From positions 8,248,001 to 8,312,000 of the forward strand of contig NW_024704742.1 in the NCBI RefSeq assembly GCF_018977255.1: 64,000 bases of DNA. Direction: 5' to 3'. Below, one piece after another: positions 7,052-32,500 of this stretch. Positions within the stretch are counted from its first letter, which is position 1; the number at the start of each line of letters is the position of its first letter. The DNA is from Callorhinchus milii (taxonomy: Eukaryota). A program made the translations under genes and the position numbers. The notes beneath the pieces are model-generated. The model had not been told where the DNA came from and ran no database searches. It was given only the letters and a program-made list of their open reading frames with translations.

Positions 7052-8534
7052 CTGCAGAGAGCAGAGTACATACAGACGGGTCACACCAGCAGACATCTAT
7101 CTCATTAATCTACACTGTCATCCAATCAGTCAATTCATCTATAATAATAATAATTTCATTTGATATAGCAACTTATGTCATTGAGACGTCTCAAAGCCCT
7201 TCACAGAATAGATTGTAAAGTGTAGTGACTATATTTTATGGGCTAAATGCAGCAGCCAAGTGCATACTGCAGTGTCTCACAAACAGTCATGGTAGAGTGA
7301 CTACATTTTTTTTGTAGGAATTATTACCCCAGAAAGTGATCCGACAATCGACTAACAACCGGGTTCCTAGTTACTAATTAGGTAAATAGAGGCAGTAAAG
7401 CACAGCCCAGCTCATTGGCAGGCCTTTGAAGGACACAGCACAACACACTACACTTTGACCCTGTCTTTGGCCACACTCCCCTCCCCACCCCCATCCTCTA
7501 CTCCTCGATTGCAACCCCCAACTCAGGTCCTTAACTGCTTTGGGACATCCTTCCGACATGAACAATGCTGTATGAGTGTAATTTGTTGTTGTTCGCTGTA
7601 TTGCCTCCAGCAAACCTAAAATTTTTCCAATGAGGAACCTGAAACTGCACAGTATTCCACCTTTGGCCCGACCATCATATTGAACAGAATCAACATGACA
7701 ACAACATGGGCCAAGCGAAGGTCTGTAAAGAGACTCAACAGTCATAGGTACTTGACACTAAGTATTGCAGACTGCAGACCACAGAATCATAGAATTATAC
7801 AGCACAGAAGGAGGCCATTCGGCCCATTGTGTCTGTCCCGGCTCTTTGAAAAGAGCTATCCAAATCAATTCCACTACCCGCTCTCTCCCTACAAACTATG
7901 TCCTCCACAAACAATTATCTACTGCTCTCTGTTGTTATCAAATCAGCTTCCACCACCTTTTAAGACAATGCATTCCAGACCTGAACAACAGCAACAACAA
8001 AATTACATTTGTATAGCATCTTTCACATCGGGAGGACTAAGTCAGAGTTTTGGACTCGAACTGGGAGTTGGGATCGGGGAGGGTGGAGGGCAGGAGGGGA
8101 AGCAGGGAGATTGACGGCACAATTGAAGAGGAGGGTCTTGAGATGGTTCTTGAAGGAGGTAAAGGAGGGGGCGAGGCGGAGGGACTGTGGGATGGAGTTC
8201 CAGAGGGTGGGTGAAAAAATTCACACTCTCTGCATGCAAAGATTTCTCCTCACCTCTCCTGTTTCTTTTAACAACTATTTTAAAATCGGTGTTCTCGGGT
8301 TACTGACCCACCCGCCAGTGCAAATAGTTTCTCCTTGTTCACCCTATCGAATCCCCTCATGATTTTGAAAACTTGTGGGGGAGCGGCAGCAGGACAGCGC
8401 GGGGAGGAGCCTGGGCCTACTGACCCAGGTACTTAAACTCGACGCCGGAGCGAGTGCAGCTAGGCAGCGAGGGGAGGGGACGGAGCGGGGAACTGCGACG
8501 TCATAGATTAGTTTTCAGGTGAGTGCGCGCGCAC

Positions 8535-8565
<31 letters not shown>

Positions 8566-11500: not shown

Positions 11501-14500
11501 CTGCAGGTCATTCAGAACTCTGCAGCTCGTGTACTGTCCCGCACCAGGCTTCGGGACCACATCACTCCCACCCTCGCTCGCCTCCACTGGCTCCCCATCC
11601 CCCAGAGGATTGATTTCAAGATCCTCATCCTCACCTACAAGGCCATTCACGGCCTTGCTCCCTCCTACCTCTCCAACCTACTATCCCCCTACCTACCTGC
11701 CCGTACCCTCCGTTCCTCTGGCTCCGGTCTGCTCCACGTCCCCCGCCCCAACCGCCCTACTATCGGTGGTCGGGCCTTCAGCCTCTCAGCCCCGAGGCTC
11801 TGGAACTCCATCCCCCAGTGCCTTCGCCTTGCTTCCTCCCTTTCCTCCTTCAAGGCCGGTCTCAAAACCTTTCTCTTTGACCGTGCCTTCAGCTCCCCTC
11901 TCGACTCTCTTCCTCCTCCTCGCTCCCTCCCTTCCCTCACCCTGACCATTTCCCCCCTCCTCTCTCCCTCCCTTCCCTCCCCTCACCCTGACCATTTCCC
12001 CCCTGCTCGGGTCATGACCCAACTGTGCAGCGCCTTGGGACGTCCTCCTGACGTGAAAGGCGCTCTATAAATGGAATCTTGTTGTTGTTGTTGTTCTATT
12101 AAGTCTCCTCTTAAGCTTCTCTGTTCCAAGGAGGATAATGCAAATTTCTCTCGCTTCTCCTGATAACTGAAGCCCCTCATTCCTGGTACCATCCTGGTAA
12201 ATCTCCTTTGCACCATCTCCAATGCTTTAACATTCCTTCCTATGTGGTGCCCAGAACTGAACACAGTCTCTAGCTGAGGTTTAACCAGTATTTTATAAAG
12301 GTTCATCATAACTTCCTGATCTCTGCAGTCTATGTCCCTATTTATAAAGCCTAGTATCCCATATGCTTGTTTTTAAAACAGCTTTATCTACCTACTGCCA
12401 CTTTAAAATATTTATATGAACCCCCAGATCTCTCTGTTCCTTCACCTGCTTTAATATTGTACCATCTAGTTTACATTGCCTTTCCTCATTCTTCTTCCTA
12501 AAATGCATCACTTCACAATTCTCCACGTTAAACTTTATCTGCCACGTGTCTGCCCATTTTACATGTCCATGTACAGTCTGTTACTATCCTCCTCAGTGTT
12601 TACTACTTTTCCTAGCTTAGTATCATCTGGATATTGATCTCCCTATACCCAAGTCCAGGTCATTTATAAAGATCAAAAACAGCAGTGCTCCCAATACTGA
12701 CCCTGGGGGACACCACTGCACACTTCCCTCCAGTCAGAAAAACAACCGTTCACCACTCTCTTGTTTTCTGTCTCCCAACCAGTTCTGTATCCGCTGCCAC
12801 TGTCCCTTTAATTCCGTGGGCTTCTATTTTGTTTACAAGTCTCTTATGTGGCACTTTTATCAAATGCCTTTTGAAAATCCATATAAACTACATCAACTGC
12901 ATTACCTTCATCCACCATCTCCGTTACTTCATCAAAAAACTCTGTATCAGTGAAAATTTATTTTGTCCCGGATTATAGTCGCTAGAAGTTTCTCCACGAC
13001 TGACGTTGGGCTGACTGGCCTTAGTTCCCGCGTTTATCCTTCTGCCCCTTTTTTGTACAGGGGAGTAACATTTGCAACCCTCCAGTCCTCTGACACCACC
13101 CTGGTGTCCAAGGAGGTTTGAAAGATTGTGGCCAGAGCCTTGGCTATTTCCACCCTTCCTCCCCACAGTGTTAACTTAGGATGCATCCCATCCGGACCGG
13201 ATAACTTATCTACCTTGAGCACCGTCAACCATTTTAGTACTTTCCCCGGTTTATTTTTATCTTATCAAATTTCTCTATCCTCTCTCCTTTGGGATGTCCT
13301 CCTGAAACGAAAGGCGCTTTACAAATTTAATCTTGCTGTTGTTGATACCATGGCATTGGCTGCACCCTCTTCTTTTGTGAAGACAGGTGCAAAGTACTCA
13401 TTCAGGACGTCAGCCAATCCCTTTGCCTCCACAAGAAGATTTCCTCATTGGTCCCTAATTGGACCCAACTTTGACTAACCTTTTATTCTTTATATGCTTA
13501 TAAAATACCTTAGGGTTCCCTTTTATGTTACCCGCTAATGTTTTCGCTAACAATCTCTTTGACCCTCTTATTTCGTTTTTCATTTCTCCTCTGTACTTTC
13601 TATGTTCTATTTGATTATCTTCTGTATTTTTGACCTAACATTTATCAAAAGCCCTCTTTTTCTGTTTTATTTTAACCCAAATTTCCTTATGCATCCGGAG
13701 AGGTTTGGATGCCCGACCTTTCCCCTTTGGGGGAATGTATTTGTTCTGTCCCCGAACTATCTCCTCCTTGAACACTTCCCATTGCTCATTAGCTGTTTTA
13801 CCTGCCAATCTTTCTTTACAGTCCACCTTGGCTAGGTTCCTTTTTAACTCACTGAAATTAACCCTCTTCAAGTGGAGCATCTTCACCTTTGATTGGTCCT
13901 TGTCCCTTTCCATAAGTACTCTAAACCTAATGATGTTGTGATCACTGTTGTCGAGATGCTCTCCCACTGAAACCTGCTCCACTTCATTACCCAGAACTAG
14001 CTCCAGCACTACTTCCTTCCTTATTGGGCTGGAAACATACTGTTCCAGAAAGTTATCTCCTCCTTGTGGCAAGGAGGAGATGGGGTTATAACCCCATACG
14101 GCAACTTGAGCCTGCAGCTCACCAACCTTATTCATCACACTGCCATGTGACTCGCATTTACATATATGCACTCCAAGACCAACTTATTCTGTTCTGCATT
14201 TCTCCCCCATTAATCTCCCCCTTTTCTGGATAATACTCCTTATTGCATTGCTATTACTACTTGAAATTAGTTTAAACTTTTCCCCACAGAACTAGTTAAC
14301 CTCCCTACAAGGACATTGGACCCACCCCTGTTTAGGTGTGACACATCCACCTTGTACAGGTCCCACCTGTCCCAGAACTGGTCCCAATGTTCCAGAAACC
14401 CAAAGCCCTCCTTTCTGCACCATTCCTCCAGCCATGCATTCATTTGTGTTTCATTCTGCTGCTTTGATACTCACTTTCATAATTCCCTGGGATTAATCCA

Positions 14501-17500
14501 GAGATTACTAAATTTGAGGTCCTACTCTTTAGCTTGTTCCCTAACTTCTAATACTAACCATGTAAGATTTCAGCCCTTTCTTCCCTCTATAGAATTCCCA
14601 ACGTGCTCCACCTCACTCATTTCCCTCCTCACACTACTAGGTTCTCTGCTCAAGTAAGGCTCTTGAACGTCTTCTCCTTTATATAGGACTCAAACAAAAC
14701 CACCCATTTCTTACTGGTCTGCATATTTTTTAATCCCCAACACTTGGCCCATGATTAACTGCTAATTGACTTGTTTGCCTGCTTACATATAAGGTTGCCC
14801 CTCTTCTGCTGAATGACAGAGTTCTCTCTTGCTCTCTGGTATCTCTCTTGCTGAAGAATTCCCTCTCACCAAATTCCTTAACAGAATTCTCTCTCTGTTC
14901 CACCTCACTCAGTTCCCTCCTCATGCTGCTGGGATCGCTTCTCAAGATCATTCAGGACTCTGCAGGTTGTGTTCTTTCCCGCCCCAGTCTCCATGACCCT
15001 ATCACCCTCACTCGGCTCCACTGGTACCCCATTCCCCCAGAGGATAGAGTTCAAAACCCTCGTGCTCACTTTCAAAGCCCTCCAAGGGTCTTCCTCTTCC
15101 CTACTTCTGTAACTTGCTTAAACCTTACAACCTGTCAGCTCCCTCCGTCCGCTCTACAGGCACTGGCCTGCTTCATGTCCCCCATCCTGCTCGCCCGCCC
15201 CACCATCACCGATCGTACCTTCAAGCTTTTTGCTCCCACCGTCTGGAACTCCAACCCTCCTCCTCACTCCCTCCCTTGATTACTGCAAGGCCCGTTTCAA
15301 GACCCTCCTCGTTGACTGTACCTGTGGGCATCCTCAACTCCCCCACTACTTGATTTCCAACCCCCAGCTCAGATGAGAACCTTTAACTGTGCAGCATCTT
15401 GGATTGTCATCCCTACATGCAAGGCACTATGTAGATTAGAATACATTGGAATATACAGCACAGAAACAAGCCATTCAGCCCAACTAGTCTATGCCGGTGT
15501 TTATGCTCCACTCGAGCCTCCTCCTGCCAACCTTCTATTCCTTTCTCCCTCATGTACCTATCTAGCTTTCCCTTAAATACATCTATGCTATTTGCCTCAA
15601 CTCCTCCTTGTGGTAGCATGTTCCACATTCTCACTACTCTCTGTGAAGAAACTTATTCTAACTTCCCTATTTGATTTATTTGTGATTATTTTATATTGAT
15701 GGCCCCTTGTTTTGATCTCCCCCACAAGTGGAAACATCTTCCCTATGTCTACCCTATCAAAACCTTTCATTAAAGATCTCTATCAGGTCACCCCTTACCC
15801 TCCTCTTTTCAAGAGAAAAGAGTCCAAGTGTATTCAGCCTTTCCTGCTAGGTATAACCTCTCAATTCTGGAATCATCCTTGTGAATCTCCTTTGCACCCT
15901 CTCCAGTGCCTCTACACCCCTTCTATAATGTGGGGACCAGAACTTCACATAGTATTCTAAGTGTGGTCTAACCAAGGTTCTATAGCAGTTTACCATAACT
16001 TCCCTGCTTTTCATTTCTATCCCTCAGCAAGTTTATTAACGTCTTGCTGTAATTTGTTGCAGTCCTCCTCTGCATTAACCACTCCCCCAATTTGGTGTCA
16101 TCCGCAAATTTTGAATTGTACTGCTGATTCCTGAGTCCAAATCATTAATGTATATTGTGAACAACAGTGGTCCCAATATCAATCCCTGTGAACACCATTG
16201 CCCACTCCCTGCCAGTCTGAGTAACTACCCTTCACCCCTACTCTCTGTTTTGTAGCCAGCTTGCTATCTTCAAAGAATTCAATGAAGTTGGTCAAGCATG
16301 ACCTTCCTTTTTGAAATCCGTGCTGACTATTCTTTATTATATTTTCCATTTCTAGATGTTTTTCTATTACCTCCTTGAATAAGGATTCCATTAACTTTCC
16401 TACCACCGATGTTAAGCTGACAGGTCTATAGTTCCCTGGGCTTGCTCTATCTCCCTTTTTAAATATAGGTATAACATTAGCTAACCTCCAGTCCTCTGGC
16501 ACTACTCCCTTTTCTAATGAGTTATTATATATGTGTAATAGTGCCTCTGCTATCTATTTGGCTATCGTCTCCTTGATCCCACATCCCCTGACCTTGAGCC
16601 ACAAATTGTTTGTGTGGAACCTCGTCAAAAACCTTCTGAAAATCCCTGCACATCACATCAGCTGCTGTTGTTCCCCTCTTTAAAATGTCTCAAAGCCCTT
16701 CATAGAATTTATTGTAAAGTACAGTGACTATGTATTTTGTGGGTGAAACGTGGCAGCTAATTGGGCACAGCATTGTCCCACAAAGTCATGGATTGAGTGA
16801 CCAAATTATTATTATTTTTTGACGAGATTATTACCCCCAGAAAAGTGATCCGCCAATCAACTAACAACCGGGTTCCTACTTACTGCTAGGTAAACAGAGG
16901 TGTGTGTAGCAAGGAAACTTGCCTAACATTTCGCCCTGCCAGGAACAAAAGTGAAAGTCGGTGTGTAAATGTAAATTTGTTGTTATTGTAAGTAACAGAA
17001 AATCTGCAGTTAGCAGTTACGATGGTCTTCCGTTTCCCACTCTCTCGACTCGTTCAAAAATAAGCTGCTGAAGAGAGGATTGAGGGCACCTACCTGTGTG
17101 GGCACAGGTAACCAACATTCTGTGAGGAACTGCTTTCATCTTTGAGTTATTCTTCAGTGTGGGTGCTGTAGACAATAAGATTCACATCAGGGAGCGGGAG
17201 TAACATGTCACACCGACCATCTCAACCCCCACCATCTCACCTCCACCATCTCACCCCCAACTCCACCATCTCACTCCCAGCCCCCCACTATCTCACCCCC
17301 ACCCCCCACCATCTCACCCCCACCATCTCACCCAACTGGCCTCTGTGTACACAGACTCAGCAAACAATGGAGCTCAGTCTGCTGTTGAGTTGGTGTACCT
17401 GGCTCAGCCGTACTGCTGGCAGACAAACGGTTCGCAAACTTGAACGCTGTGGAAAGGAAAGATGTGAGGTGAGAGGTCAACAGCAGCCACTCTGGTCCTT

Positions 17501-20500
17501 GTTGTGAACCAGTCACATGATGTTTCGCCCACAAACTAGTTACTACACTTTACAGTATATTCTGTGAAGCGCTTTGAGATGTCTCGAAGACATGATAAGG
17601 CGCTATGTTAAATGCAAGGTTTATTATTCATAGTATTTACCATATGTTTCGGTGTCATCCAAATACATATGGAAGTTGACCCCATGTCTGCAGATGATGT
17701 CACCAAGATGGAGTACATAGATACTGAAGAGGGGGGGACCAAGAATAGAGCTCTGAGGAACCCGCACGAGATAGTGCGGGGGCGAGAGGCGAAACCGATT
17801 GTGGAGTTGAAGTGGAGAAGATGTGAGAGATAGGATCTGAACCATTCAAGGACAGAACCATGAAGGTTGAGGTGAGAGAGGCGATGGAGGAGGATAGAGA
17901 GTGGTCAATGGTATCGAAGACAGCAGTGGTCAAGAAGGATGAGGAGGCAGATGGGCAGAATATCATTTGTCACTTTGACCAGGGCTGCTTCTGTGCTGTG
18001 GGCGGCACGGAAACCTGATTGGAGAGGTTTGTGAAGCGTGTGGCGGGAGAGGAAGGAGCAAAGCTGGGAAATGACGACTCATTCCAGGATCATGGAAAGA
18101 AAGGTTGGAGATGAATTACGTACAGCAGTGTCCCACAAACAGTCGTTGATTGAGTGAGCAAATTATTATTTTTAGTTTTTTTTTGAAGGGATTATTACCA
18201 ATAAAAGCAATCGGCCAATTGACTAGGTAAATAGAGGCATGTGGAATAAGGAAACTTGCACAATGTTTCACCCCGCCCAGGAATCAAACCCAGGTCATCT
18301 TGCTTGTGAGGAAAGTGTTCTAACTACTAATCTATAGGACTCCACAAACTGAGCAAACTGACTCTTGGTCTCCACATGAACAAGAACAATACCGTTAAAA
18401 ACGTTGCTTACCTCGGACTAGGCTGGGTGTTGTTTTTTCAAAATGTCCCACAGTTCCTTTGAAAATAACACGAGGTCCAAATGTGGCTGCAGTAAAGACA
18501 AAGCAGATAGAAAAGACAGTGTCGCCAGCCCTGGCTGCTGAGCCAGTTAGCCTACGATTCCTGAAATGTACAGCACTCGAGAGGTAAAAGGTTGAATACA
18601 ACAGGTGCTTACTTATATCTGCAGCAGCAGTTGTCCTGGGATGTTTCCTTACGATCAAATCATGTTCAGAATCTGTTGAAAAGGGAAGATAGGAGCAATT
18701 ATTGCCAGCACTTCCCTCCAATCTCACAGCCAGTCACCATATGTTAACTGCAATCTGCTTTCACTGATAGCGGAGAGCTTGATATCCACACAAACCTGAA
18801 CTGCCCCCATAAGAAAGCAGATCTCTGTGAGTGTGTGCGCGTATGTCTGCCTGTGCGTGTCTGTGCTGTGCTTTGAAGCGTTCTGAGATGCTGCCCTGCT
18901 ATGCAAATTGTTGATGTGTATGTGTATCCATGGAGGACATGTGTTTCCTATTCTTACATCCTATATGTAGGATCTTTGGATTTATCAGTATTAAAAATTG
19001 CCAGTTATCAGCCCATCTACAGTGGAGGACAGTGGAGTCCTGTAGCTCAGTGGTTAGAGCACTCGCTTTGCAAGTGAGAGACCCGAGTTCAATTCCAGGC
19101 AGAGGGCGAAACCTTGGGCAAGTTTCCTTACTCCACACAGAGCCTAATAATAATCCCTCCAAAAACCAAAATAAAAATTGGTCATTTTCAATCTACGACT
19201 GTTTGTGGGACATTGCTGTGCGCAATTGGCTGCCACTTTCGCCCACAAATATAGTCAATTCACTTTACAGTGTGTTCTGTGAAGCGCTTTGGGACGTCCT
19301 CCCGACGTGAAAAGCGCTATATCAAATGCAAGGATTATTATTATTATTATTATCTATGTACCATAACAGGCTCTCTATCCTTTCGGTTTCCTCTGATTCC
19401 AACCTGGCATGCTGGGTCACTTAATGCGCGAGGGGCACTAGAGAAATGCAAGTTGTTGTTCTTGGTATCATCTGAACTGGGTCTGTGATTCCAGGGTCAT
19501 TTATACAAACAATTTCTATTTATATAGCACTCCTCATGCAGGGTAGCATCCCTGAGCACTTAGAAGGAACCAGGCTGTTTGAGAGGATGATAAATGAGGA
19601 AGATTTTGAAGGAGAGGAAGGGATGGTACAGAGTTAAGTGTTTAGGGGGACAGAGTCACCAGGACTCAGCCTGCTTTCTAAACCCAAGGATGTTGATGTG
19701 ATCGTCCAGGATGTCATGGATCGTAAAGATTTTATTGGAGACCCTGAGGCACCCACTTAATACCTCCTCCCCATTGTGACCTACATTTTGCTTCTTTCCC
19801 TTCAGCCAATTCTCAATCCGCTATGTGTTGTCCTTCATACCCAATGACATTGCTTACTTCGGACTAGGCTGGGTGTTGCTTTTTCAAAATGTCATGGTTT
19901 GTGAAGGAACCTTTAGTGAGGTACTTTGTCACACGTCCTTTTGAACATCTTGCGCTAAAGGAAAGTCCTTTATGCAGGGTAGCATGTCGGAGTACTTAAC
20001 AGTGGTCGATTTTGACCTGAGGCAGGAAGGGGGGAAGGTGATGATAGGCATGATCGAACAGAAAGTCTAGAAGTGTGACCTGAAGGTAGGCAAGAGGGGG
20101 CAAGGCTGAGAGATTCAACAACAAATTGCATTTATACAGTGGTCGATCAGAAAGGTCTTGTGGGAGGCGAAGGGATTCCAGGATGGAGGTCCAGAGGGTG
20201 GGGACAGAAAGGCTGAAGGCTTGACTGCCGATGGTAGGGTGGGCAGGGTGGGGTTGTGACAGAGGCTAGTGGCTGTCGAGGTGAGAGCGAAGGAGATGGG
20301 AGTGGGTTGGGTGGCAGGGAGTTGGATGGAGGAGTTTAAAGGAGAAGATTGAGGCAGAATATTGGTAGAGTTTTAGAAGGTCACAAAGGGAGGGTAGAGG
20401 CAAGACCGTGGAGGGATTCTGGGGGATGGGGAGCTAGAGCATCGAGTTCAGGATTCTTGCAGGAGTAGAACCGATAGTTGTGAAGGAAAGTGATGAGGTT

Positions 20501-23500
20501 AGGTGGTGGTGGGAAAAGGGCCAGAGTAGGTGTTCAGATAGCTAGAGGGCACTAGAGAAGGAGTGGTGGGTGATTTATTTTCAGGGATGGAAGGAGATGG
20601 GAGTGGGTTGGGTGGCAGGGAGTCAGATGGAGGAGTTTAGAGAAGAAGATTGAGGTAGAGATGTGTTCAATGGATGGAACTTTGTGGAGTCCTGTAGCTC
20701 AGTGGTTAGAGCACTCGCCTTGCAAGCGAGACACCTGGGTTCAGTTCCAGGCAGGTCAGGGCGAAACCGTGGGCAAGTTTCCTTACTCCACACCCCTAAT
20801 AATAATCCCTCCAAAAAACAAAACAATAACAAATTGGTAATTTTCAATCCACAACTATTTGTGGGACACTGCTGTGCACAATTGGCTGCCTCGTTTCACC
20901 CACAAATATAATACAGTCAATCCACTTTACAGCATATTCTGTGAAGCGCTTTGAGACGTCTAGAAGATGTGAAAAGTGCTATATAAAATGCAAGGATTAT
21001 TATTATTACTATAGAGAATTCCGGAGTATCGGGGTGGAGTGGCTGAAAGCACGGCTGTCCCTGGTGAGCAAATGGAACGAGCGAGGTACAGAAGGACTGA
21101 GCTGCCTGAACTAAGTGGGTGGTGGAGTGGGGGAGTAAGCAGGTTGGAGAAGTAGGGAGGTGCCAGTGAATGAAGCGATTTATATGTGAAGTCTGAGGAT
21201 CTTAAAATCGATCTGTTCTGCAATAAGCCCTTATATTAAAAAGTAATAATAATGTCACTCAATCCATGACTGTTTTTGTGGGACACTGTTGTGCGCAATA
21301 GGCTGCCGTGTTTTGCCCACAAAATATAGTGAATTCACTTCACAGTATATTCTGTGAAGCGCTTTGAGACTGTGATCGGTGGGGGACTGTGATCGATGGG
21401 GGACTATGATCAGTGTGGGACAGTGATCATAGAATCATAGAATTATTAACACAGGAGGCCATTTGGCCCATCATGTCTGTGGCGGCTCTTTGAAGAGCTG
21501 TCCAATTCAATCCCACTTCCCCGCTCTCTCCTCATAGCCCTGCAAACTTGTCCTACCCAAATAATTATCTACTTCTCTCTTAAAAGTTTTTATCGACTCG
21601 GCTTCCACCACCCTTTGAGGCAATGCATTCCAGATCTGAACACAAGCCATCAGTGAGTGGCCGGGATCCATGAGTGGCCGGGATCAGTGTGGGACCGCGA
21701 TCAGTGTGGGACTGCGATCAGTGTGGGACCGCGATCAGTGTGGGACCGCAATCAGTGAGTGACTGCATCAGGTTGGGACTGCGTCAGGGTGGGACTGCGA
21801 TCAGTGAGTGACTGTGATCAGTGTGGGACTGCTATCAGTGAGTGACTATGATGAAAAAATAGTATATATAAATCACAGATTCAAAATAGTATCTAAAAGA
21901 AGCAGAGGGGAGGTGAGAAGAAATGTTTTCACGCAGCGAGCTGTTCGAATCTGGAATGCATTGCCTGAAAGGGTGGTCGAGCCCGATTCGATAACTACTT
22001 TTAAAAACGTGGTGGACAGGTATTTGAGGAGCACAGGTTTGCAGGGTTTCTGAGCTTGAGGAGCTTGAGGAGTCACTACACAGCATATGGGAGGCTGAAG
22101 AGTTCATGGATCGAACGTTTCAGGAGGTGGTCACCCCACAGCCACAGAGGGTTCAGAAGGAGAATGAGTGGGTGACCACCCGACATGGTAAGAAGTGTGG
22201 ACAGCCAGTGCAGAAATCCCGAGAGTGGCACTCACAAACCAGTTTGGTGTACTGAATACACAGAATGTGATGATACCTCTGGGGAGAGGAGTCAAAAGCA
22301 AATGGATGCACAGGGGTACACAGAGAAAAATGTCAATGCAATTGTCATTGGGGACACAATGGTGAAAGGAGTAGACAAGAGTTTTCGCAACCAAAGAAGT
22401 GACTCTCGCATGGTATGTTGCCTTCCTGGTGCCAGGGTTGAAGACATCATGGAATGGGTGCAAAACGTTCTACAGGGGGGAGGGGAACATCCAGCAATCG
22501 TGGTCCATGTTGGGATCCATGACGTAGGGAAAAAATGTGCTGAGATCCTACAAGAATAGTATCAGAAGCTCGGGAAAAAGTTAAAGAAGTAGGACCTCAA
22601 AGGTGGTGATCTTTGGATTACTCCCAGTGTCTTATGTGAGTATCAAAACAGCAGGATCAAACACATGAATGGATGGCTGGAGAAATGGTGCAGAAAGGAG
22701 GGCTTCAGGTTCCTGGAACATTGGGATTAGTTCTGGGGCAGGTGGGACCTGCACAAGGTCGATAGGTTACACCTGAACAAAGCTGGGTCCAGTGTCCTTG
22801 TAGTGGAGGTTAACTAGTGCTGTGCGGAAAGGTTTAAACGTTCGAGTAATAATAGCAATGCAATAAGGAGTATTATCCAGAAAAAGGAGAGATTAAACGG
22901 GGGAGAAATGCAGAGCAGAATAAGTTGGTCTTGGAGTGTGCGTAAATGCACAGAGTATGAAGAATAAGGTTAGTGAGCTGCAGGCTCAAGTTGCCACAGG
23001 AGGTTATAACTCTATCTCCTCCTCTTCACAAGGAAGAGATAACTTTCTGAAATAGTATGTTTCCAGCCCAATGAGGAAGGAAGCAGTGCTGGATCTAGTT
23101 CTGGGGAATGAAGTGGGGCAGGTGGAGCAGGCTTCAGTAGGAGAGCATCTGGACAACAGCGATTACAACATCATTCGGATCAGAGTACTTATGGAAAGGG
23201 ACAAGGAACAATCAAAGGTGAAGATGCTCCACTTGAAGAGGGCTAATTTCAGTGAGTTAAAAAGGAACCTAGCCAAGGTGGACTGTAAAGAAAGATTGGC
23301 AGGTAAAACAGCTAATGAGCAATGGGAAGTGTTCAAGGAGGAGATAGTTCGGGGACAGAACAAATACATTCCCCCAAAGGGGAAAGGTCGGGCATCCAAA
23401 CCTCTCCGGATGCATAAGGAAATTTGGGTTAAAATAAAACAGAAAAAGAGGGCTTTTGATAAATGTCAGGTCAAAAATACAGAAGGTAATCAAATAGAAC

Positions 23501-26500
23501 ATAGAAAGTACAGAGGAGAAATGAAAAACGAAAAAGAGGGTCAAAGAGATTGTATGAGAAAACATTAGCGAGCAACATAAAAGGGAACCCTAAGGTATTT
23601 TATAAGCATATAAAGAATAAAAGGTTAGTCAAAGTTGGGTCCAATTAGGGACCAATGAGGAAATCTTCTTGTGGAGGCAAAGGGATTGGCTGACGTCCTG
23701 AATGAGTACTTTGCACCTGTCTTCACAAAAGAAGAGGGTGCAGCCAATGCCATGGTATCAACAACAGCAAGATTAAATTTGTAAAGCGCCTTTCGTTTCA
23801 GGAGGACATCCCAAAGCGCTGGAGAGAGGATAGAGAAATTGGATAAGATAAAAATAAACCGGGGAAAGTACTAAAACGGTTGACGGTGCTCAAGGTAGAT
23901 AAGTCATCCGGTCCGGATGGGATGCATCCTAAGTTAGCACTGTGGGGAGGAAGGGTGGAAATAGCGGAGGCTCTGGTCACAATCTTTCAAACCTCCTTGG
24001 ACACCGGGGTGGTGTCAGAGGACTGGAGGGTTGCAAATGTTACTCCCCTGTACAAAAAGGGGCAGAAGAATAAACGCAGAAGCTACAGGCCAGTCAGCCC
24101 AACGTCAGTCGTGGAGAAACTTCTAGCGACTATAATCTGGGACAAAATAAATTTTCACTGATAAGTTTTTTTGGTGAAGTAACGGAGATGGTGGATGAAG
24201 ATAATGCAGTTGATGTAGTTTATATGGATTTTCAAAAAATGTTTGATGAAGTGTCACATAAGAGATTTGTAAGCAAAATAGAAGCCCACGGTATTAAAGG
24301 GACAGTGGCAGCGGATACAGAACTGGCTGGGAGACAGAAAACAGAGAGTGGTGGTGAACAGTTATTTTTGTGACCGGAGGGAAGTGTGCAGTGGTGTCCC
24401 CCAGGGTCAGCATTGGGACCACTGCTGTTTTTAATCTATATAAATGACCTGGACGTGGGTATAGGGAGATCAATATCCAAGTTTGCAGATGATACTAAGC
24501 TAGGAACAGTAGTAAATGGTGAGATAGTGGCAGACCGTAAGAAGACATAGACTGACTGGTAACATGGGCAGACACGTGGCAGATGAAGTTTAATGTGGAG
24601 AAATGCGGAGTGATGCATTTGGGGAGGAAGAATGAGGAGAGGCAATATAAGCTGATGGTACAATCTTAAAGGGGGGGAAGGAACAGAAGACCTGGGGTTC
24701 ATATAAGTAAATATTTGAAGGTGGCAGGACAGGTAGATAAAGCTGTTAAAAAAGCATACAGGTGCAAAGGAGATTTACTAGGATGGTACTAGGAATGAGG
24801 GACTTCAGTTATTAGGATAGGCTAGAGAAGCCGGGATTATTCTCCTTGGAGGAGAGGTTAAGAGTGGACTGAATAGAATTTTTTAAAATTATGCAGGGAT
24901 TCGATAGGGTGAAGAAACTATTCAAATTGGGGGTTGGGTCGGTAACCCGAAGACACTGATTTAAAATAGTTGTTAAACGAAACATTGGGGAGATGAGGAG
25001 AAATTTTTTCATACGAGTTGTTCAGATCTGGAATGCATTGTGTGAAAGGGTAGTGGAACCAGATTCGATAACAACTTTTAGGAGAGAATTAGATAATTAT
25101 TTGGGGAGGACACGTTTGCAGGGCTATGGAGAGAGAATGGGGGGGTGGGATTGATTTTGATAGCTCTTTTAAGAGAGCCGGCACAGACACAACAGACCAA
25201 ATGACCTCCTTCTGCGCTGTATAATTCTATGATTCTATGATTAGTGTGTGACTATGATCAGTGTTTAGTTCAGTGATTGTAATGAATGACTAATATGTGG
25301 CAGTAGTGTGTGGCTCAGTGTTAGTGTGTTATTGCTGTGCTGTACCTGAAGTGTTCCCTGTTACAGCTAGCTCTGGTGTAGTTGTGTCAGCTCTCCTGTC
25401 TGTTAAAAAGAGAAGCAGAAATGCCATTGTCTATATGGCTGACAAGAGTCTGAGAGAGAAAATCAGAGGGTGTGGTGGGTGGTTTGTGCCATAGCCAAGC
25501 CCTAACCTAATCTCTCTGGGTGAGAATCAGCTGCTATGCCCAACACAAGCTCTCATGTTTGGTCTACTTACATAATTCCAGTCACATTTACACTGCACCA
25601 CAATTGACACTTATACTGACCACCACTGACATACTAGGAGGCTGAAAGCCAAAGCCATAATGCGTAGGGTGGTCCTAGCTGGATAAGCAGCGGGAAAGCT
25701 TGCCAGACAGCGATATCAATGACAAGCTATGTAGTTTTAACTAGTTAGACTCCAGCAGTTACTACAACGCACTCTGGGGTCCGTCCCCAAGCCTTGGCTC
25801 TTGCCAAACTGCGCCTAATACTCTCCAGGATTCGGTAAGCAGGATGCATCCCTCTACGGAGAGAGTGCCAATTCCATTCCAACAATCTATCTCTGGGATT
25901 TTCATGTGCAGGTGGGATGAATGGAAATCTCAGATTGGTTGGATACTCTTGAGCACGGTGATGAGTTTCTGCATGTGTCAGACATCCAGCTGACTGCAAA
26001 AAAAAATTAAACATTGACATTTATACTGCACCACCATTTGTCCAAAATTATGAGTGTTTTGATAAAGAGTAATAGGGAGAAACTATTTCCTCTGGCGGGT
26101 GGATCGGGGGAATGGGTCGGAATGGATCAGCACAGGCACATGCTGTAAGATTCCATGATTCTATGAATTGACATTTATACATGTGGAAAGCCCTTCTCAG
26201 AGAACTTGAGCTGCTGACTTTGTGCTTTGTCACCGACCACCCCAGCTTCTTTAGCTCCGTCACAGAATGGATCAATGTCAAGTTCCTCACATTCCAACAA
26301 TGCCCTAGGACCTCCCTCATCTGCTTACAATACAGTCCTCAACCTGTCCCCTCCACTCAGCTGGCTCCAGCCGTCTGCATGTGCCCCGATGCCACCGTTC
26401 CACCATCTGGTAACTGCTTTCAGCCACTACGCCCCAAACCTCAGGAACTCCCTGTTTCAATCCCTCCACTAGCCCCCTCTTTACCCGTTTTCAGATCCCA

Positions 26501-29500
26501 CCTGAAGACTCTTTGATGGTTGGGTCACCACGCCTCTCTCCCTGGCTCAGCGTCAAACTCCACCATTGTTTAGCGCTCCAAGATCCTACTCTGCTTGAAG
26601 GGTACTATATCAATCAACTGATTGTATCTCATAACTACATCTTGTAATCACTGACTGCTTTGCCAGTGGGGATAGCTTCTCCCTATTCACTCTGTTAAAC
26701 CCTCACCATTGTGTCCACCTCTATCAGCTCCTTTCAACCTTCTCAGATCCAGTGAAAACAGACCCAACTTCCCTAATCTCTCCTCATCACTAAAGCGTCT
26801 CATCCCTGGGATCATTCTCATTATAGGGTATCAGGAGTTGCATGAAATGTTCGTAAGAATATTATGTCCTATCCTCCATAGGCTGCAGATCATCCAGAAA
26901 GATAATTGGCAAAATAACTAGAGGGGAGATGAAGAAACATTTTTTTACCCAGAGAGTTGTTATGGTCTGGAATGCACTGCCTGAAAGGGGAGTGGAAACA
27001 GATTCAATAACAACTTTCAAAAGGGAATTGGATAGGTACTTAAAAAGAAAATATTTGCAGAATTATAAGGTAAGAGCGGGGCAGTGGGATTAGTTGGATA
27101 GCTCTTTCAAAGAATGGCCTTCTTTCTGTCCTGTAAGATTCTATGATGCTATGCTCACCATCTCCCAGCCTGGTAATGGGTGCTTTATGATTGATTTCTG
27201 TTGTAGCTGATGTTCTGGATATCACTTCTGAAGGATCAGTTCTTAACTCTTCTGCTGTATTAAGAAAGAAATATTAAATAATAAGCCTTGCATTTGGTAT
27301 ATAATAATAATAATCCTTGCATTTGATATAGCGCTTTTCACGTCGGGAGGATGTCCCAAAGCGCTTCACAGAACACACTGTAAAGTGAATTGACTGTATA
27401 TTTGTGGGCGAACGCGGCAGCCAATTGCGCACAGCAATGTCCCACAAACAGTCGTAGATTGAAAATGACCAATTTATTATTGTTTTTGGTTTTGGAGGGA
27501 TTATTATTAGGCTCTGTGTGGAGTAAGGAAACTTGCCCAAGGTTTTGCCCTCTGCCTGGAATTGAACTCAGGTCTCTCACTTGCAAAGTGAGTGCTCTAA
27601 CCACTGAGCTACAGGACTCCAGTGCCTTATTGCATCTTCTAGACGTCTTAAAGCGCTTCACAGAATATACTGTAAAGTGAACTGACTGTGTATGTTTTGT
27701 GGCAGAAACACAGCAGCCAATTGCACACAGCAGTGTCCCACAAACAATCGTGGATTGAGTAACTAGTTTATTATTATTATTGTTTTGAAGGCAAAAGTGA
27801 TCCGTCAATCGACTAACAAGTGGGTTCCTACTTACTACTAGGTAAACAAGAGTTGTGTGGAGTAAGGTGACTTGCCCAACATTATGCCCTGCCCAGGAAT
27901 CAAACCCAGGTCCTCTCGCTTGCAAGGCGAGTGCTCTAACCATTAAACTACAAGACTCCATTAAACAAACCAAATAAGCATGGAATACACACACTCCAGT
28001 TAGCACACCATCTAAAACATTTTGTTTTGATCAGCCTGGTGTCTAGAATGGAATGTACCCTCTCCCCGAAGGAACACACCCTAATTCTGCATAGGTTGGA
28101 AAGAGCTGTCTACAGAATGTGCTGAAATTGAACTAGCTAAAAACCCCAAAGCTTGCCATTGAGAACACAATCTACCAAGTTTTCCCGCTACTTGTCCAGC
28201 TAGGACCGAGTTGTTCATTTGATACCTTAGCATGGGTTTGAGTCTCACGAGGTAGATGGCAGATACCAAGAACTCCCTGTGAGCTTCTGGGGAAACACTC
28301 AGCATGAAATGAGAGGATTGTCACTCGTGGAGCCCTGTAATGTTGTGGTTAGTGCACTTGCCTGGCAAGCGAGAGGACCTGGGTTTGATTCCCGGCAGGG
28401 CGAAACGTTAAGCAAGTTTCCGTAACCTACATGCCTCTGTTTACCTAGCAGTAAGTAGGAACCCAGTTGTCTATTGGCAGATCACTTTTCTGGGGGTAAT
28501 AATCCCTTCAAAACAATAATAATAATAATTTGGCCACTCAATCCGTCCATGGCTGCTGCATTTCGCCCACAAAATATACAGTGAATTCTACTTTACTGTA
28601 TACTGTGTGAAGTGCTTTGAGACGTCTCAAAGACGTGATAAGGCAATATATCAAAGGCAAGGATTATTATTATCTTTTCTACCATACATAACTTTTTTGT
28701 AGATAAATTCAGATTGCTGAATACAGAGGAACCAAAATCAGACTGAACTGAAGAATTGTGAACAATGCAAAGCTGCGCCAGTGACATTCTACCTTACCTG
28801 GCCACTCAGGGAACAGGAACCCATTGCTGCCTGATCCCTCTAAGGTGCAGTTAGGCAGAGCCCAGCCAGGATCACAGTGACACCGGTCATTGTTGTTACA
28901 CACCTAGAATAATAGAATAAAACACAGAGGTCGCTTCATACCCCGGCCATGAAACTCCCAGCTCTACGGAGGAAGAGAGGTCCCTCAGCTCTGCAACAAC
29001 AACAAATTACATTTATGTAGTGCCTGGCCATGAATATAATAATCATCCTTGCATTTCATGTAGCGCCTTATCATGACTTCGAGACATCTCAAACGCTTCA
29101 CAGAAGGTACTGTACCACTGTTGACTGCATATTTGTGAACGAAACGCAGCAGCCAATTGCGCATCAACATTCATGGATTGAGTGCCCACATAAGAATATA
29201 TATTTTTAAAAATTGTTTCTTTTGAAGGGAGTATTACCCCTGGAAAAGCGTTCAGTCAAAGGACTAGCAAACGGGTTCCTAGTCACTGCTAGGTAAAGGG
29301 GGGGGTGGAATGAAAGGGGGGGCAACGGGGAGCAGAGTGTAAGGGGGCGCGGAGTACAAGGGGGGGACAGAGTACAAGGGAGGTATGGAGGGCAAACGGG
29401 GTACGGAGGGCAAAGGGGGTGGAAGACATGGGAAGCGGAGGGCAAGGGGGTGGAGGACAAATAGGGGTAGAGGGCAAGATGGGGCAGAGGGTGAGGGAGT

Positions 29501-32500
29501 GTGGAGGGCAAATGGCGTGGAGGGCAAGATGGGGGAAGGCAAGGTGGGCAGAGGTCAAGAGGGGCGAAGGGCAAGGGAGGCAGAAGACAAGGGGGTTGGA
29601 GGGCATGAATGTAGAAGGCAAGGGTGGGTGGAGGGCAAGGGGGGGTGGAGGGCAAGGGGTGGTGGAGGGCAAGGGGGGTGGAGGGCAAGGGGTGGTGGAG
29701 GTAGGAAGAAGATCGAAGGCTCAGTCGAAGAGGAAGTTCTTGAGAAGAGTTTTCAGGGAAGAAGCAAGGGATAGGGTGAGGTGGAGGATTGCATTACAGA
29801 GGGTGGGGGCACAAAGGCAGAAGGCCTGACCTCTGATGTTGGCGCAGGTAAGGCGGGGGCCATGGAGCAGGCCAGTGGTTGCCCAGTAGGTCAGAGTTAG
29901 GGATGAGCAAGACTGTGGAGGGCTTTAAAGGTGAGGACAAGGATCTTGGAGTGCTGTAGCTCAGTGATTATAGCACTCGCCTGGCAAGTGAGAGACCTGG
30001 GTTCGATTCCCGGCAGGTCAGGGTGAAACCTTGGGCAAGTTTCCTTACTCCACACGCCTGATAATAATCCCTCAAGAAAAAAATAATAAATTGGTCACTT
30101 CAATCCACGACTGTTTGTGGGACACTGCTGTGCGCAAATGGCTGCCACGTTTCGCCCATAAAATAGTCAATTCACTTTACAGAATATTCTGTGAAGCGCT
30201 TTGAGACGTATAGAAGACGTGAAAAGCGCTATATCAAATGCAAGGATTATTATTATTGAACTCTATCCTCTGGGGGATGGGGATCCAGAGAACCGAGCAA
30301 TGATGGGGATGATGGGGTCACGGATCCTGGTGCAGAAGAGGACACAAGCTGCCGAATTCTGAATAATCTGCAGCTTGTGGAGGGAAGAGCTGGGGAGGCC
30401 TAGTTAACATAGTCGAGCCTGAGCGCAATGAAAACATGGATGAGGGTCTTGGAGGCCTGGGGTGAGAGGTAGTGGCAGAGACAGGCAATGTTGTAGAGGT
30501 AGGGAAGGAGAATGGGTCAGGGCATGGATGTGGGGTTTGAATCACAACTGAGGGACTGCTTGACTCGCTGAGATGGAGAGTGCATCCATCCATGGATAGT
30601 GTTGCTGTCAGTGCTTGAGGCGTGGAGCTGCTGACAGGAGCTCAGGTACAAAATCTTGAATGTCCAGCACCTTTGGACCTTCTCCTGATATGAAAGGTGC
30701 TGGATAAACATAATTTGTTGTTGTCGCTCAGCTCTTCAGAGGAAGAGACGTATCTCAGCTCTAGTGCTCAGCTATGTCTCAGTACTCACCCCATGGCCGC
30801 TGCAGTAAGCATGGCACTTGTTCACACTGAACACCCTGACATTGCGACACATACCTTTGAAGCACACCTGAGGAAAGAGATACAGTGATTACAGATTGTG
30901 TGGATTCAGACAGACAAGGTGATTGCATGGAGTATTTACTTAGTGTGTCTCATCAATAGCCTGGCTACAATCAGGAATTTGCCACAAAGGGAAGTTACAA
31001 GAATGTGAGGATCAGCTCATTGCGAAGCCTGAATCTGTAACCGATACAGAACGTTGTCATTACAACTTGCATTTATAGCGACCTTCACGCAGATAGTCCA
31101 GGGAGGTGCAAGGGCAGGAAGGGATTTGAAAATGAGTGAGAGGATCTTGAAATTGATCAGTTCAGTAATTGGGAGGCAGTGGAGCCTGGCGAGGACTGGT
31201 GTGATGGGGGTACGGAGATTTACCTTTGCTGAACCGCAAGGTGTACCAGATGCCACCATATCAATGCCTTCAATGTCGCCCATGAAATAGGTTCCATGGC
31301 ACTGAAAGTTCTTGCCTGTATTAGAAAAACGAGATACCACGGATACTGATCTTCCCCCAAGAATTAGTGATGCTCCTCTTTTACTGCACTGAAGTTTGCC
31401 ACATTTCACATCTCTGCAGGAAAATTGCAAATAATAGGTTTTAATAGAGAAAATATGGAGAAATTGTTTCCACTGGCAGGTGGGTTGGTAACCAGAGGAA
31501 CCAGTTTTAAGATAATTGGCAAAAGAACCAGCGGGGAGATGAGGGGAAATGCAGAGCTCCCGGGTAAGAGCAGGGGAGTGGGACTAGTTGGGGTAAGAAC
31601 AGAGGAGTGTGGCTAGTTGGGGTACGAGTGGGGGAATGGGACTAATTGGGGTAAGTGGGGGGAGAGTGAGCCTAGTTAGGGCAAGAGCCGGGGGAATGGG
31701 ACTAGTTGGTAGTTCTTTCAAAGAGCTAGCACAAGCACGATGGGCTGAATGCCCTCCTTTTGTGCTGTAAGATAATAATCCTTGCATTTGATATAGCGCC
31801 TTATATATTATTATCTTCAACCATGCCTTCCCCTCCCCTCCCTTCTCCCCCTGACCCCAACTCGGGGCTGACACTCTGTCCAGTGCCTTGGGACGTGCTC
31901 CCGACATGAAAGCGCTATGCAAATGCAATCTTGTTGATGTTACCATGTCTTCAAGGTGTCTCAAAGTGCTTCACAGAATATACAGCGTTTACCCTAGACT
32001 ATGCATTTAGGTTAAAAACATGTTCACGATGAGTAGAGTTTCTGAGGATGTGAACAGCACATGTGACATTGATAATTTATACCTTTTCTCCCTTAATTAA
32101 TGTAATTAATGCCCATATTGGTGGTAAGGCAACAACAATTTCCACTCATCGTGGAGTTCTGTAGCTCAGTGGTTAAAGCAGCTTCCCTCACAAGCGAAAG
32201 GACCGGAGTTCGATTCCCGGGCAGGGCGAAATCTTAGGCAAGTTTCCTTACTCCACACTCCTCTGTTTAACTAGCAGTAAATAGGAACCTGATTGTTAGT
32301 CGATTGGCCAATCGCTTTTCCGGGGGTAGCAATCCCTTCCAAAGAAAATATTTTTAAAAATTTGGTCAACTGCTGTGCGCAATTGGCTGCCGTGTTTTGC
32401 CCATAAAATACACAGTGAATTCACTTTATAGTATATTCTGTGAAGCTCGTTGAGATGTCTCGAAGATGTGATAAGGTACTGTATTAAATGCAAAAATTAT

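Follow-up and report, generated by a model that had tools for sequence, protein, structure and literature searches.

Between the EGF-like exon and the transmembrane exon of an ADAM gene of the elephant shark Callorhinchus milii lie six short islands of sequence, raising the question of whether they are genuine exons and, if so, what kind of stalk they build. We analyzed the whole 64,000-nucleotide stretch of DNA (the window). Scripted threading matches a 935-residue isoform, P0005 (XP_042195639.1), to the window letter for letter in 26 coding exons, with introns that are all GT-AG. Pfam assigns propeptide, reprolysin, disintegrin, ADAM_CR, and EGF domains to the protein, bearing out the earlier identification of the gene as an ADAM. 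The six islands claimed in a preliminary description of this DNA prove to be real coding exons 19 to 24 of the 26, flanked by GT-AG and all in phase 1-1, at the following minus-strand positions among the features of the gene.

6414..58659, minus strand: whole ADAM coding region, 26 coding exons, isoform P0005 (threading, tblastn of P0001, Pfam)
37113..37255, minus strand: coding exon 11, with the zinc-binding motif (ORF translation, exon map, motif scan)
28798..28903, minus strand: coding exon 18, EGF-like domain and first 16 linker residues, ending in phase 1 (Pfam EGF match at residues 674-702)
27159..27254, minus strand: stalk exon 1 (coding exon 19), 96 nt, phase 1-1, residues 718-749
25346..25399, minus strand: stalk exon 2 (coding exon 20), 54 nt, phase 1-1, residues 750-767, alternatively spliced cassette
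19847..19893, minus strand: degenerate second copy of the 3' part of stalk exon 4, GT donor included, within the intron that separates stalk exons 2 and 3
18613..18672, minus strand: stalk exon 3 (coding exon 21), 60 nt, phase 1-1, residues 768-787
18412..18486, minus strand: stalk exon 4 (coding exon 22), 75 nt, phase 1-1, residues 788-812
17399..17446, minus strand: stalk exon 5 (coding exon 23), 48 nt, phase 1-1, residues 813-828
17094..17165, minus strand: stalk exon 6 (coding exon 24), 72 nt, phase 1-1, residues 829-852
6898..7051, minus strand: coding exon 25, transmembrane helix (predicted at 856-882) and start of the short cytoplasmic tail, starting in phase 1
6414..6510, minus strand: coding exon 26, C terminus of isoform X1 including the stop codon (exon map)

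Exons are numbered below as coding exons. The stalk is present in public C. milii gene models, including V9KDR3 and XP_042195639.1; RefSeq names isoforms of the gene ADAM12 or ADAM19. Together the six exons encode 135 residues (718-852), of which 21 are Thr and 10 Ser, a Ser/Thr share of 23% compared with 10.5% in residues 231-717. There are two sequons, NTS at 765 and NNS at 834, so that the length, the count of about 31 Ser/Thr, and the two N-x-S sites reported earlier all stand. At each acceptor a pyrimidine-rich stretch runs up to a CAG, and the donors all start with GT. A scan of the region for stop-free AG...GT segments of the six lengths nonetheless returned 67 candidates (11, 11, 14, 9, 18, and 4), indicating that sequence criteria are insufficient by themselves for calling the six exons. 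What lifts them above chance is the protein match, the spliced contigs, and conservation in other species.

Could the stalk be neutral filler, intronic or repeat-derived sequence that became exonic and is tolerated as a linker whatever its length or sequence? Self-BLAST of the exons, each extended by 60 nt of flanking sequence, finds repeat matches beside exon 19 only, and these stop 3 and 12 nt short of it on its two sides. Within the window, the sole exonic repeat match is the 3' part of exon 22, whose 47-nt duplicate at 19847..19893 is 93.6% identical, carries a 35-nt insertion, and by our own reading in the exon 22 frame reaches a stop after that insertion. Such neighbors, and the lack of any known domain in the stalk, are compatible with an origin of this kind, whereas the exons themselves are unique within the window, much as the preliminary description had them.

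We examined assembled contigs, among them those of runs X1 and X2, which come from two studies, P1 (2013) and P2 (2022); the RNA label of these contigs is a tool's guess, and exons 20, 21, and 23 are placed in them from gap lengths rather than from matched pieces. In X1 record 4 (546 nt), exons 18 and 19 abut at record positions 186/187 and are followed by 114 nt, the combined length of exons 20 and 21 (54 + 60), then by exon 22 and a further 75 nt, giving an unbroken run of exons 18 to 24. Similarly, X2 record 7 (621 nt) contains exon 24, 48 nt corresponding to the length of exon 23, exon 22, and a further 61 nt, an unbroken run of exons 21 to 25. Exon 18 is also covered by X2 record 13 and X3 record 21, and exon 19 by X2 record 10. 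Matched pieces of exon 22 occur in X1 record 4, X2 record 7, and X4 record 22, and of exon 24 in X1 record 1 and X2 record 7; going by length, exon 21 lies within X1 record 4 and makes up the end of X2 record 7. Run X1 and V9KDR3 may derive from the same data, in which case they are not independent. Spliced contigs from two studies join the stalk exons. Splicing includes all six in the mRNA, where they code for a stalk of 135 residues that separates the EGF domain from the membrane.

Because all six are in phase 1-1, any subset could be skipped in frame, as had been pointed out from the exon phases. The public models of this gene show how far that possibility is used: exons 19 and 21 to 24 are retained in all seven, and exon 20 is present in five, being missing from XP_042195644.1 and XP_007910258.1 (P0004 and P0007). 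In X2, contigs stop a single base beyond exon 19 and a single base short of exon 21. A is the first base of exon 20 as well as of exon 21, and G the last base of exon 19 as well as of exon 20, so that each of these single bases is common to both paths and the ends fit an inclusion/skipping bubble at exon 20. The 54-nt exon 20 is therefore an alternative cassette that changes the length of the stalk by 18 residues. No skipping of any other stalk exon is shown by the seven models or the contigs examined. The proposed splice-tunable stalk is thus partly supported, for exon 20 only.

A wider splice rheostat, in which tissue-specific combinations of the six symmetric exons (each a multiple of three) set the length of the stalk and the reach of the protease, is in our judgment improbable. 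X2 record 13 stops precisely where exon 18 does, which points to a second continuation at that junction, be it intron retention or exon 19 skipping, and the isoforms of a Rhinoraja paralogue differ by a 22-residue stalk segment (linkers of 77 and 55 residues). Small juxtamembrane cassettes are also reported to tune shedding in CADM1 (PMC5385562) and ALCAM (PMC5816644). Against this stand the retention of five exons in all seven models, the unbroken contigs, and the splice sites themselves, whose matches (6 to 8 of 9 positions for the donors) fall within the range of the gene's other exons (6 to 8).

To which family does the gene belong? In the careful tree, the focal group is supported at 100/100, as is its union with an elasmobranch paralogue group; the join with the ADAM15-named clade receives 89/88 in that tree and 98 SH-aLRT in the quick tree. 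On this phylogeny, the two groups form a cartilaginous-fish clade sister to bony-vertebrate ADAM15, with moderate support for the join, and ADAM15 is the nearest named bony-vertebrate family. ADAM15 proteins of Amia, Lepisosteus, Chanos, and Xiphophorus share the order of propeptide, reprolysin, disintegrin, ADAM_CR, EGF, and transmembrane segments with the focal protein, are about 50% identical to it over residues 230-720, and likewise have 40 cysteines from the catalytic to the EGF domain. Their tails, unlike the focal tail of 56 residues without PxxP, are long and proline rich, with K-P-L-P-P-D-P runs in the alignment consensus. The linker between EGF domain and membrane is 147 residues in the focal protein and 129 to 162 in its orthogroup, compared with 14 to 29 in 97 of the 110 scorable relatives, the 97 being bony-fish ADAM15-like proteins; the preliminary description had drawn such a contrast with mammalian ADAM15. 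The paralogue group ("ADAM12-like" proteins of Mobula, Hypanus, Rhinoraja, Heterodontus, and Pristiophorus, P0160) has short tails and Ser/Thr-rich linkers of 48 to 77 residues, 48 to 76 among the scorable proteins. Some of these linkers contain Thr/Pro-rich tandem repeats, and their similarity to the focal stalk is not significant (z of 1.9 or less).

Orthologues from Pristiophorus japonicus (P0008), Narcine bancroftii (P0010), and Amblyraja radiata (P0009), all automatic predictions compared as proteins, are 66 to 72% identical to the focal protein. They share its transmembrane start, a similar short tail, and a stalk of 121 to 145 residues with the same segment order, a single Cys, and the N-x-S-K sequon; the Amblyraja model ends after the exon 19 equivalent, which all three models contain. 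The Pristiophorus stalk is identical to the focal stalk at 48 of 130 positions (37%; ectodomain, 73%), with z of 15 over 300 shuffles and 11.5 when the last 10 residues are left out. For Narcine, whose model lacks a stretch of 21 to 24 residues spanning the exon 20 equivalent, the stalk values are 40 of 114 (35%; z of 7.7 against shuffles) and the ectodomain value is 70%. Aligned identities are found in every stalk exon, and the focal, Pristiophorus, and Narcine stalks contain 23%, 25%, and 21% Ser/Thr and exactly one Cys each. These alignments indicate that the chimaera stalk is homologous to those of the sawshark and electric-ray orthologues. Chimaeras and elasmobranchs separated about 400 million years ago. 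Although the stalk has diverged much faster than the ectodomain, as neutral filler would, six exon-sized segments recognizable in the sawshark orthologue and a conserved length, composition, sequon, and cysteine over that interval make filler quite unlikely. The suggestion that the architecture is new to ADAMs is partly undercut, as the stalk is already annotated in C. milii and in elasmobranch orthologue models.

The orthologues further bear on the suggestion that the stalk sets the distance between protease and membrane. The zinc motif is HEIGH in the focal protein and HGIGH in five of five elasmobranch orthologue models, whereas the paralogue group retains the catalytic glutamate. Both of the HGIGH models (of the five) that reach the membrane keep the stalk, which weakens that suggestion and argues against the splice rheostat as well.

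The term "mucin-like" overstates the character of the stalk. Ser/Thr is enriched, but Pro amounts to 7% and the exons are not repeats of one another (0 of 15 pairs score beyond shuffles), a composition remote from that of a classical mucin. Scaled hydropathy is 0.39-0.42 in exons 19 to 21 and 0.46-0.49 in exons 22 to 24; on the charge-hydropathy line, exons 19 to 21 fall on the disordered side, and exons 22 to 24 and the whole stalk on the "folded" side. The best-conserved patches lie in the membrane-proximal half: G-x-R-V-x-F-K (also in the Pristiophorus orthologue), K-F-x-N, the N-x-S-K sequon, and a cysteine-bearing run before G-T-P-(I/V)-W-L-M. Exon 24 carries the conserved sequon and the extra cysteine directly N-terminal of the membrane. 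Added to 40 ectodomain cysteines, this residue is an odd 41st, and a motif and Cys scan found no linker Cys in the paralogue group or in bony-fish ADAM15.

These features raise the possibility that exons 22 to 24 form a specific module, a folded or binding segment, a shedding site, and/or a site of disulfide dimerization via the extra cysteine, leaving exons 19 to 21 as the sole true tether. We regard this as rather unlikely. Narcine identity is low in exons 22 (5/25) and 23 (5/16), no Pfam family covers residues 718-852, an Atlas structure search gave no usable match (TM of 0.27 or less), and no sequence relative of the stalk was found beyond the orthologues. AlphaFold2 predicts residues 693-853 at pLDDT 25-35 without secondary structure and, just beyond them, a helix at 856-882 with good confidence (pLDDT 67-94). 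As the model is poor overall (mean pLDDT of 54.6, pTM of 0.39, and values under 50 across much of the disintegrin domain, whose fold is known) and the alignment covers the stalk with two or three rows only, this low confidence is weak evidence of disorder.

CADM1 (PMC5385562), ALCAM (PMC5816644), and UNC5B (PMC12480741), which are ADAM substrates rather than ADAMs, are reported to have, as here, small in-frame cassettes that separate the final folded module of the ectodomain from the membrane; exon 20 resembles these in exon layout. In CADM1, susceptibility to shedding is reported to be determined by stalk exons that are Thr-rich and O-glycosylated and by a 33-bp alternative exon (PMC5385562). 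ADAM10 and ADAM17 are described as having "a small stalk region" in addition to a membrane-proximal domain (PMC5316459). Compared with these and with a canonical ADAM, the focal EGF-to-membrane gap is about 150 residues and comes from six separate exons. The literature searched yielded no publication on this stalk.

We consider it probable that the six spliced coding exons form a largely unstructured spacer stalk with splicing control limited to exon 20. Such a spacer, probably glycosylated judging by its composition, would hold the metalloprotease/disintegrin/cysteine-rich/EGF head about 150 residues off the membrane. Its membrane-distal half (exons 19 to 21) would act as a hydrophilic, fast-evolving tether, and its membrane-proximal half (exons 22 to 24) would be the more hydrophobic and better-conserved part, with the conserved sequon and the unpaired cysteine beside the membrane. 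The uniform phase 1-1 may have let units be gained, lost, or skipped in frame across evolution, with day-to-day splicing control apparently confined to the 18 residues of exon 20.

The window holds a single large gene, encoded on the minus strand. A search with its disintegrin exon retrieved P0001, a Callorhinchus milii protein of 913 aa whose UniRef name is [quoted passage not shown]; past the EGF-like domain, it carries all six predicted stalk peptides, contiguous and in the expected order. The 90% cluster of P0001 comprises seven entries, each assigned to Callorhinchus milii by its source: V9KDR3, RefSeq isoforms X1 to X4 (935, 917, 852, and 765 aa), an older RefSeq model (895 aa), and a UniProt entry (799 aa). 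Isoform X1 (XP_042195639.1, here P0005) threads letter for letter onto 26 coding exons, and all introns are GT-AG. The positions on which the analysis turns are as follows.

58659 to 6414, minus strand: coding sequence of the focal ADAM, 26 exons
37113-37255, minus strand: exon 11, with the zinc-binding motif
28798, minus strand: end of exon 18 (EGF-like)
19847-19893: decayed partial duplicate of exon 22 (3' part)
18487-18612, minus strand: intron between exons 21 and 22
17094-17165, minus strand: segment encoding the lone juxtamembrane cysteine (residue 849 of P0005)

In the P0005 threading, exon 18 ends in phase 1, the transmembrane exon (exon 25) starts in phase 1, and exons 19 to 24 between them measure 96, 54, 60, 75, 48, and 72 nt, each a multiple of three with phase 1-1. 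The six islands singled out in the preliminary description are real coding exons, and its choice of exons coincides exactly with the annotated gene model. Its counts of 135 aa, 31 Ser/Thr, and two N-x-S sequons were all reproduced. Sequence rules alone do not discriminate among candidates here, as the region contains 67 stop-free AG...GT segments of the six lengths. The stalk exons and one alternative form were present in public annotation beforehand.

Pfam matches on P0005 place PF01562 at residues 80 to 151, PF01421 at 234 to 433, PF00200 at 449 to 522, and PF08516 at 529 to 637, with an EGF model at 674 to 702 scoring slightly below threshold (24.1 versus a cutoff of 24.3 bits). AlphaFold2 predicts a transmembrane helix at residues 856 to 882. 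The order is that of an ADAM (M12B adamalysin): propeptide, reprolysin, disintegrin, cysteine-rich, and EGF-like domains followed by a single transmembrane helix. No Pfam match falls on residues 718 to 852, the stalk encoded by exons 19 to 24. Exon 11 matches the zinc-binding consensus HExxHxxGxxHD; the chimaera protein reads HEIGH and is, judged by this motif, predicted to fit the catalytically competent subset, whereas all five elasmobranch orthologue models (P0008, P0009, P0010, P0012, and P0013) read HGIGH, with Gly in place of the catalytic Glu. The elasmobranch paralogue group, proteins named "ADAM12-like", retains the Glu as HE(L/M)GH. PMC4550289 describes frog and bird ADAM15 in which the catalytic Glu has been lost (E to Q), which sets a precedent for the elasmobranch HGIGH.

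Ser and Thr make up 31 of the 135 stalk residues (23%), a 2.2-fold excess over the rest of the ectodomain. Charged residues account for 34 (25%) and Pro for 9 (7%), and motifs of the T-T-T-P type are present. Mucin-like domains have a Ser/Thr/Pro content of roughly 40% or more, a share that the stalk does not reach. We also found no tandem repeats, as none of the 15 exon-peptide pairs outscored shuffles at the 1% level; for exons 20 and 22, the highest-scoring pair, 14 of 300 shuffles did as well or better. With 23% Ser/Thr, 7% Pro, and no repeats, the stalk is not a classical mucin domain. A charge-hydropathy test put exons 19 to 21 on the disordered side and exons 22 to 24 on the opposite side, and did not class the whole stalk as disordered. 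In an AlphaFold2 model built from a 50-row alignment, residues 693 to 853 have pLDDT values of 25 to 35 and no secondary structure, while the helix at 856 to 882 is confident; the model is poor overall, with much of the disintegrin domain also below 50. Searches of the Atlas by features and by structure returned nothing usable or comparable for the stalk. The stalk is probably a flexible, glycosylated spacer whose membrane-proximal part is more constrained.

Transcript data consisted of four runs, X1 to X4 (contig sources distinct from the RefSeq isoforms of the same labels), with RNA status guessed, which were mapped to 16900-28950 as assembled contigs rather than reads. Splice evidence was taken from the table of contig pieces, in which parts without cover were not counted as evidence. 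Intron-less contigs were found in these runs. In X1, a 546-nt contig (record 4) has exon 18 at 80 to 186 abutting exon 19 at 187 to 282, then a 114-nt gap, exon 22 at 397 to 471, and a further 75 nt; the 114 nt equal exons 20 and 21 (54 + 60), and the 75 nt match exon 23 together with 27 nt of exon 24. In X2, a 621-nt contig (record 7) contains exon 24, a 48-nt gap matching exon 23 in length, exon 22, and a final 61 nt, which by length is exon 21 plus one base. Three stalk exons are thus placed in contigs by gap length only. Run X1 may underlie V9KDR3. No exon junctions appeared among the listed contig joints and loose ends, which are mostly SINE and LINE copies. The preliminary description held that its exons would fall if transcripts always spliced 28798 directly to 7051; since contigs from two separate studies (X1 and X2) carry stalk exons, such constant splicing does not hold.

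Alternative use of the stalk exons was visible at one position. Exon 20 alone is precisely missing from two of the seven public models, P0004 and P0007 (accessions XP_042195644.1 and XP_007910258.1), and none of the seven has lost any other stalk exon. In X2, record 10 ends one base past exon 19 and record 7 one base short of exon 21. The first base is A in both exons 20 and 21, which then differ, and the last base is G in both exons 19 and 20, which differ before it. We infer that the one-base overhangs mark a graph-assembler bubble where exon 20 is either included or skipped. By counts of splice-site matches, no stalk exon, exon 20 included, is distinct from the other exons of the gene. The claim that any subset of the six can be skipped in frame therefore stands as arithmetic, given the phase 1-1 boundaries, but real inclusion and skipping is evidenced, from models and assembled contigs, for exon 20 only, a change of 18 residues.

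Two further observations concern transcript structure. X2 record 13 stops flush at 28798 and record 10 begins 30 nt before exon 19; the flush end implies a second continuation after exon 18 in X2, which intron retention or exon 19 skipping could explain. Exons 21 and 22 are separated by an intron of only 126 nt, in frame and stop-free, so that its retention would add 42 residues within a single open frame from 18733 to 18395; by our arithmetic, chance alone would leave 42 codons free of stops with a probability of about 0.13, and the frame may mean nothing.

The 3' end of the gene also varies. V9KDR3 and XP_007910258.1 end in R-F-F-T-Q..., unlike isoform X1; the Narcine model ends in R-F-F-T-S..., and the ending of the Pristiophorus model is closer to isoform X1. 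From these termini, the focal gene may have two alternative last exons that are old. The exon encoding the R-F-F-T-Q terminus of V9KDR3 was not found within the window and probably lies downstream of 6898 on the minus strand, past the window start.

Beyond Callorhinchus milii, the closest matches are models from five elasmobranchs (Pristiophorus, Amblyraja, Narcine, Chiloscyllium, and Scyliorhinus), with approximately 66 to 72% identity. Two of the five elasmobranch orthologue models extend to the membrane, those of Pristiophorus japonicus (P0008) and Narcine bancroftii (P0010), and both have a long stalk that aligns segment by segment with that of Callorhinchus; a third model ends after its equivalent of exon 19. 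Stalk identity is 48/130 with Pristiophorus (z of 15 over 300 shuffles, falling to 11.5 when the last ten residues are left out) and 40/114 with Narcine (z of 7.7), with ectodomain identities of 73% and 70%, respectively. Aligned identities occur in each stalk exon. The three stalks are 121 to 145 aa long, contain 21 to 25% Ser/Thr, and have in common an N-x-S-K sequon in the exon 24 segment; the Narcine model is without a 21- to 24-aa stretch spanning the exon 20 equivalent. Cys849, the only Cys of the stalk, lies four residues ahead of the G-T-P-(I/V)-W-L-M helix start, has a counterpart as the single stalk Cys of both the Pristiophorus and the Narcine orthologue, and is missing from paralogue and bony-fish linkers. 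As the ectodomain already has 40 Cys, this juxtamembrane residue would be unpaired within the chain. A word-based search with residues 700 to 870 returned only the protein's own cluster, a result uninformative on absence, since homologous stalks exist.

To place this length among ADAMs, we measured the linker from the last EGF Cys to the first strongly hydrophobic 19-residue window in 126 proteins, of which 110 could be scored. The linker is 14 to 29 aa in 97 of the 110, these being bony-fish proteins named ADAM15 or ADAM12; it is 48 to 76 aa in the elasmobranch paralogues and 129 to 162 aa in the focal orthogroup. At 147 aa, the focal protein does not match the short EGF-to-transmembrane linker of the ADAM15 orthogroup. 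ADAM15 has a long proline-rich cytoplasmic tail with an SH3-binding role; the bony-fish consensus tail contains K-P-L-P-P-D-P runs, whereas the focal tail is 56 aa without PxxP.

Sequence relatives in HMMER searches were the elasmobranch "ADAM12-like" proteins (46 to 48% identity), fish ADAM15 (45%), ADAM19 (43%), ADAM33 (42%), and ADAM12 (40%). Trees recover the focal group at 100/100 and the focal group plus the elasmobranch paralogue group at 100/100. This combined clade falls beside the ADAM15-named clade with 98 SH-aLRT in a quick tree (43 rows) and 89/88 in a careful one (25 rows); the set is without mammalian ADAM15, and several clades in it are unnamed, including two rows beside bony-fish ADAM15. 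A separate clade unites ADAM12, ADAM33, and ADAM19. The name ADAM15 used in the preliminary description is thus fair, with moderate support from the trees, for a cartilaginous-fish co-orthologue, but the proline-rich tail and short linker that go with the name are absent.

The stalk exons are unique sequence within the window. Repeat copies flank exon 19, ending 3 and 12 nt away. The 3' part of exon 22, together with its GT donor, has a decayed duplicate 1.4 kb upstream, in a 6.7-kb intron (47 nt at 93.6% identity, with a 35-nt insertion in the duplicate), so the region has been subject to local duplication. Derivation of the six exons from one another by duplication was considered and dropped, there being no sign of it in any of the 15 pairs. 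Nor does the focal stalk have significant similarity to paralogue-group stalks or bony-fish linkers (z of 1.9 or less), and a first impression of homology between exon 19 and the Mobula stalk was given up on that value. The paralogue stalks (P0021, P0059, P0160, P0127, and P0276) are Thr/Pro-rich, some of them with two tandem repeats (Heterodontus and Pristiophorus), and Rhinoraja paralogue isoforms differ by a 22-aa membrane-proximal piece of the stalk. Building long stalks out of exons thus seems habitual in both cartilaginous-fish copies.

Several other features of the window were recorded.

8660-12070, plus strand: non-LTR retrotransposon with an uninterrupted 1136-codon frame and endonuclease and reverse-transcriptase domains (Pfam), in the 10-kb intron between exon 24 and the transmembrane exon
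37817-39989: 2.2-kb intronic array between coding exons 9 and 10, in which a G+C-rich unit of 25 nt recurs approximately 98 times; G+C is 0.81 in the 2-kb bin 38001-40000
33406-33881: intronic minisatellite, period 23/39 nt
29386-29701: intronic minisatellite, period 16 nt
6622-6864, 19000-19200, and 27340-28030, among many copies window-wide: short interspersed repeat with a readable frame and very high contig depth in all four runs
1343-1367: 25 N, the sole gap

A full-text literature search found no paper on a long or spliced ADAM stalk or on the focal gene; the sole paper found with both "ADAM15" and "elephant shark" was PMC4550289, which uses the elephant shark for ADAM9. ADAMs bind or cleave their partners near the membrane; in the textbook layout, described in PMC5316459, the EGF-like domain adjoins the transmembrane helix. 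The nearest described mechanism concerns ADAM substrates, not ADAMs: in CADM1, according to PMC5385562, susceptibility to shedding is set by Thr-rich O-glycosylated stalk exons and by a 33-bp cassette. Exons 19 to 24 match the symmetric, in-frame layout between last ectodomain module and transmembrane segment of CADM1- and ALCAM-type stalks; ALCAM (PMC5816644) and UNC5B (PMC12480741) were compared as alternatively spliced juxtamembrane stalks. A conserved six-exon stalk of approximately 150 residues in a cartilaginous-fish ADAM15-like lineage thus appears to be an undescribed architecture. The preliminary description is confirmed in its observation and borne out in part in its interpretation; the exons themselves were already annotated publicly. 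The practical weight of the finding, which concerns an uncharacterised protein and touches no long-standing open question, is modest.

On a speculative reading that we consider rather improbable, cartilaginous fishes duplicated an ADAM15 ancestor and both copies acquired exon-assembled stalks; the focal stalk of 120 to 160 aa and its Cys would be under selection that has kept them for some 400 million years and outlasted the loss of the Glu in elasmobranchs, the protein serving mainly as a disintegrin/cysteine-rich adhesion molecule or decoy of long reach, possibly linked by disulfides, with splicing of exon 20, and perhaps of more exons, setting its reach or its own shedding. If true, this would be an ADAM serving as a tethered ligand, not a sheddase. 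The gene offers a clean example of a linker made of uniform phase 1-1 mini-exons, at least one of them a cassette, in parallel with the shedding-tuning stalk exons of CADM1 and ALCAM. A stalk of approximately 150 residues alters ADAM geometry: the head could contact partners in the matrix or on other cells, and cleavage of the stalk itself could free the head. The chimaera HEIGH versus the elasmobranch HGIGH, with the stalk kept in the two membrane-reaching models, provides a natural comparison between possible roles of stalk length in proteolysis and in adhesion.
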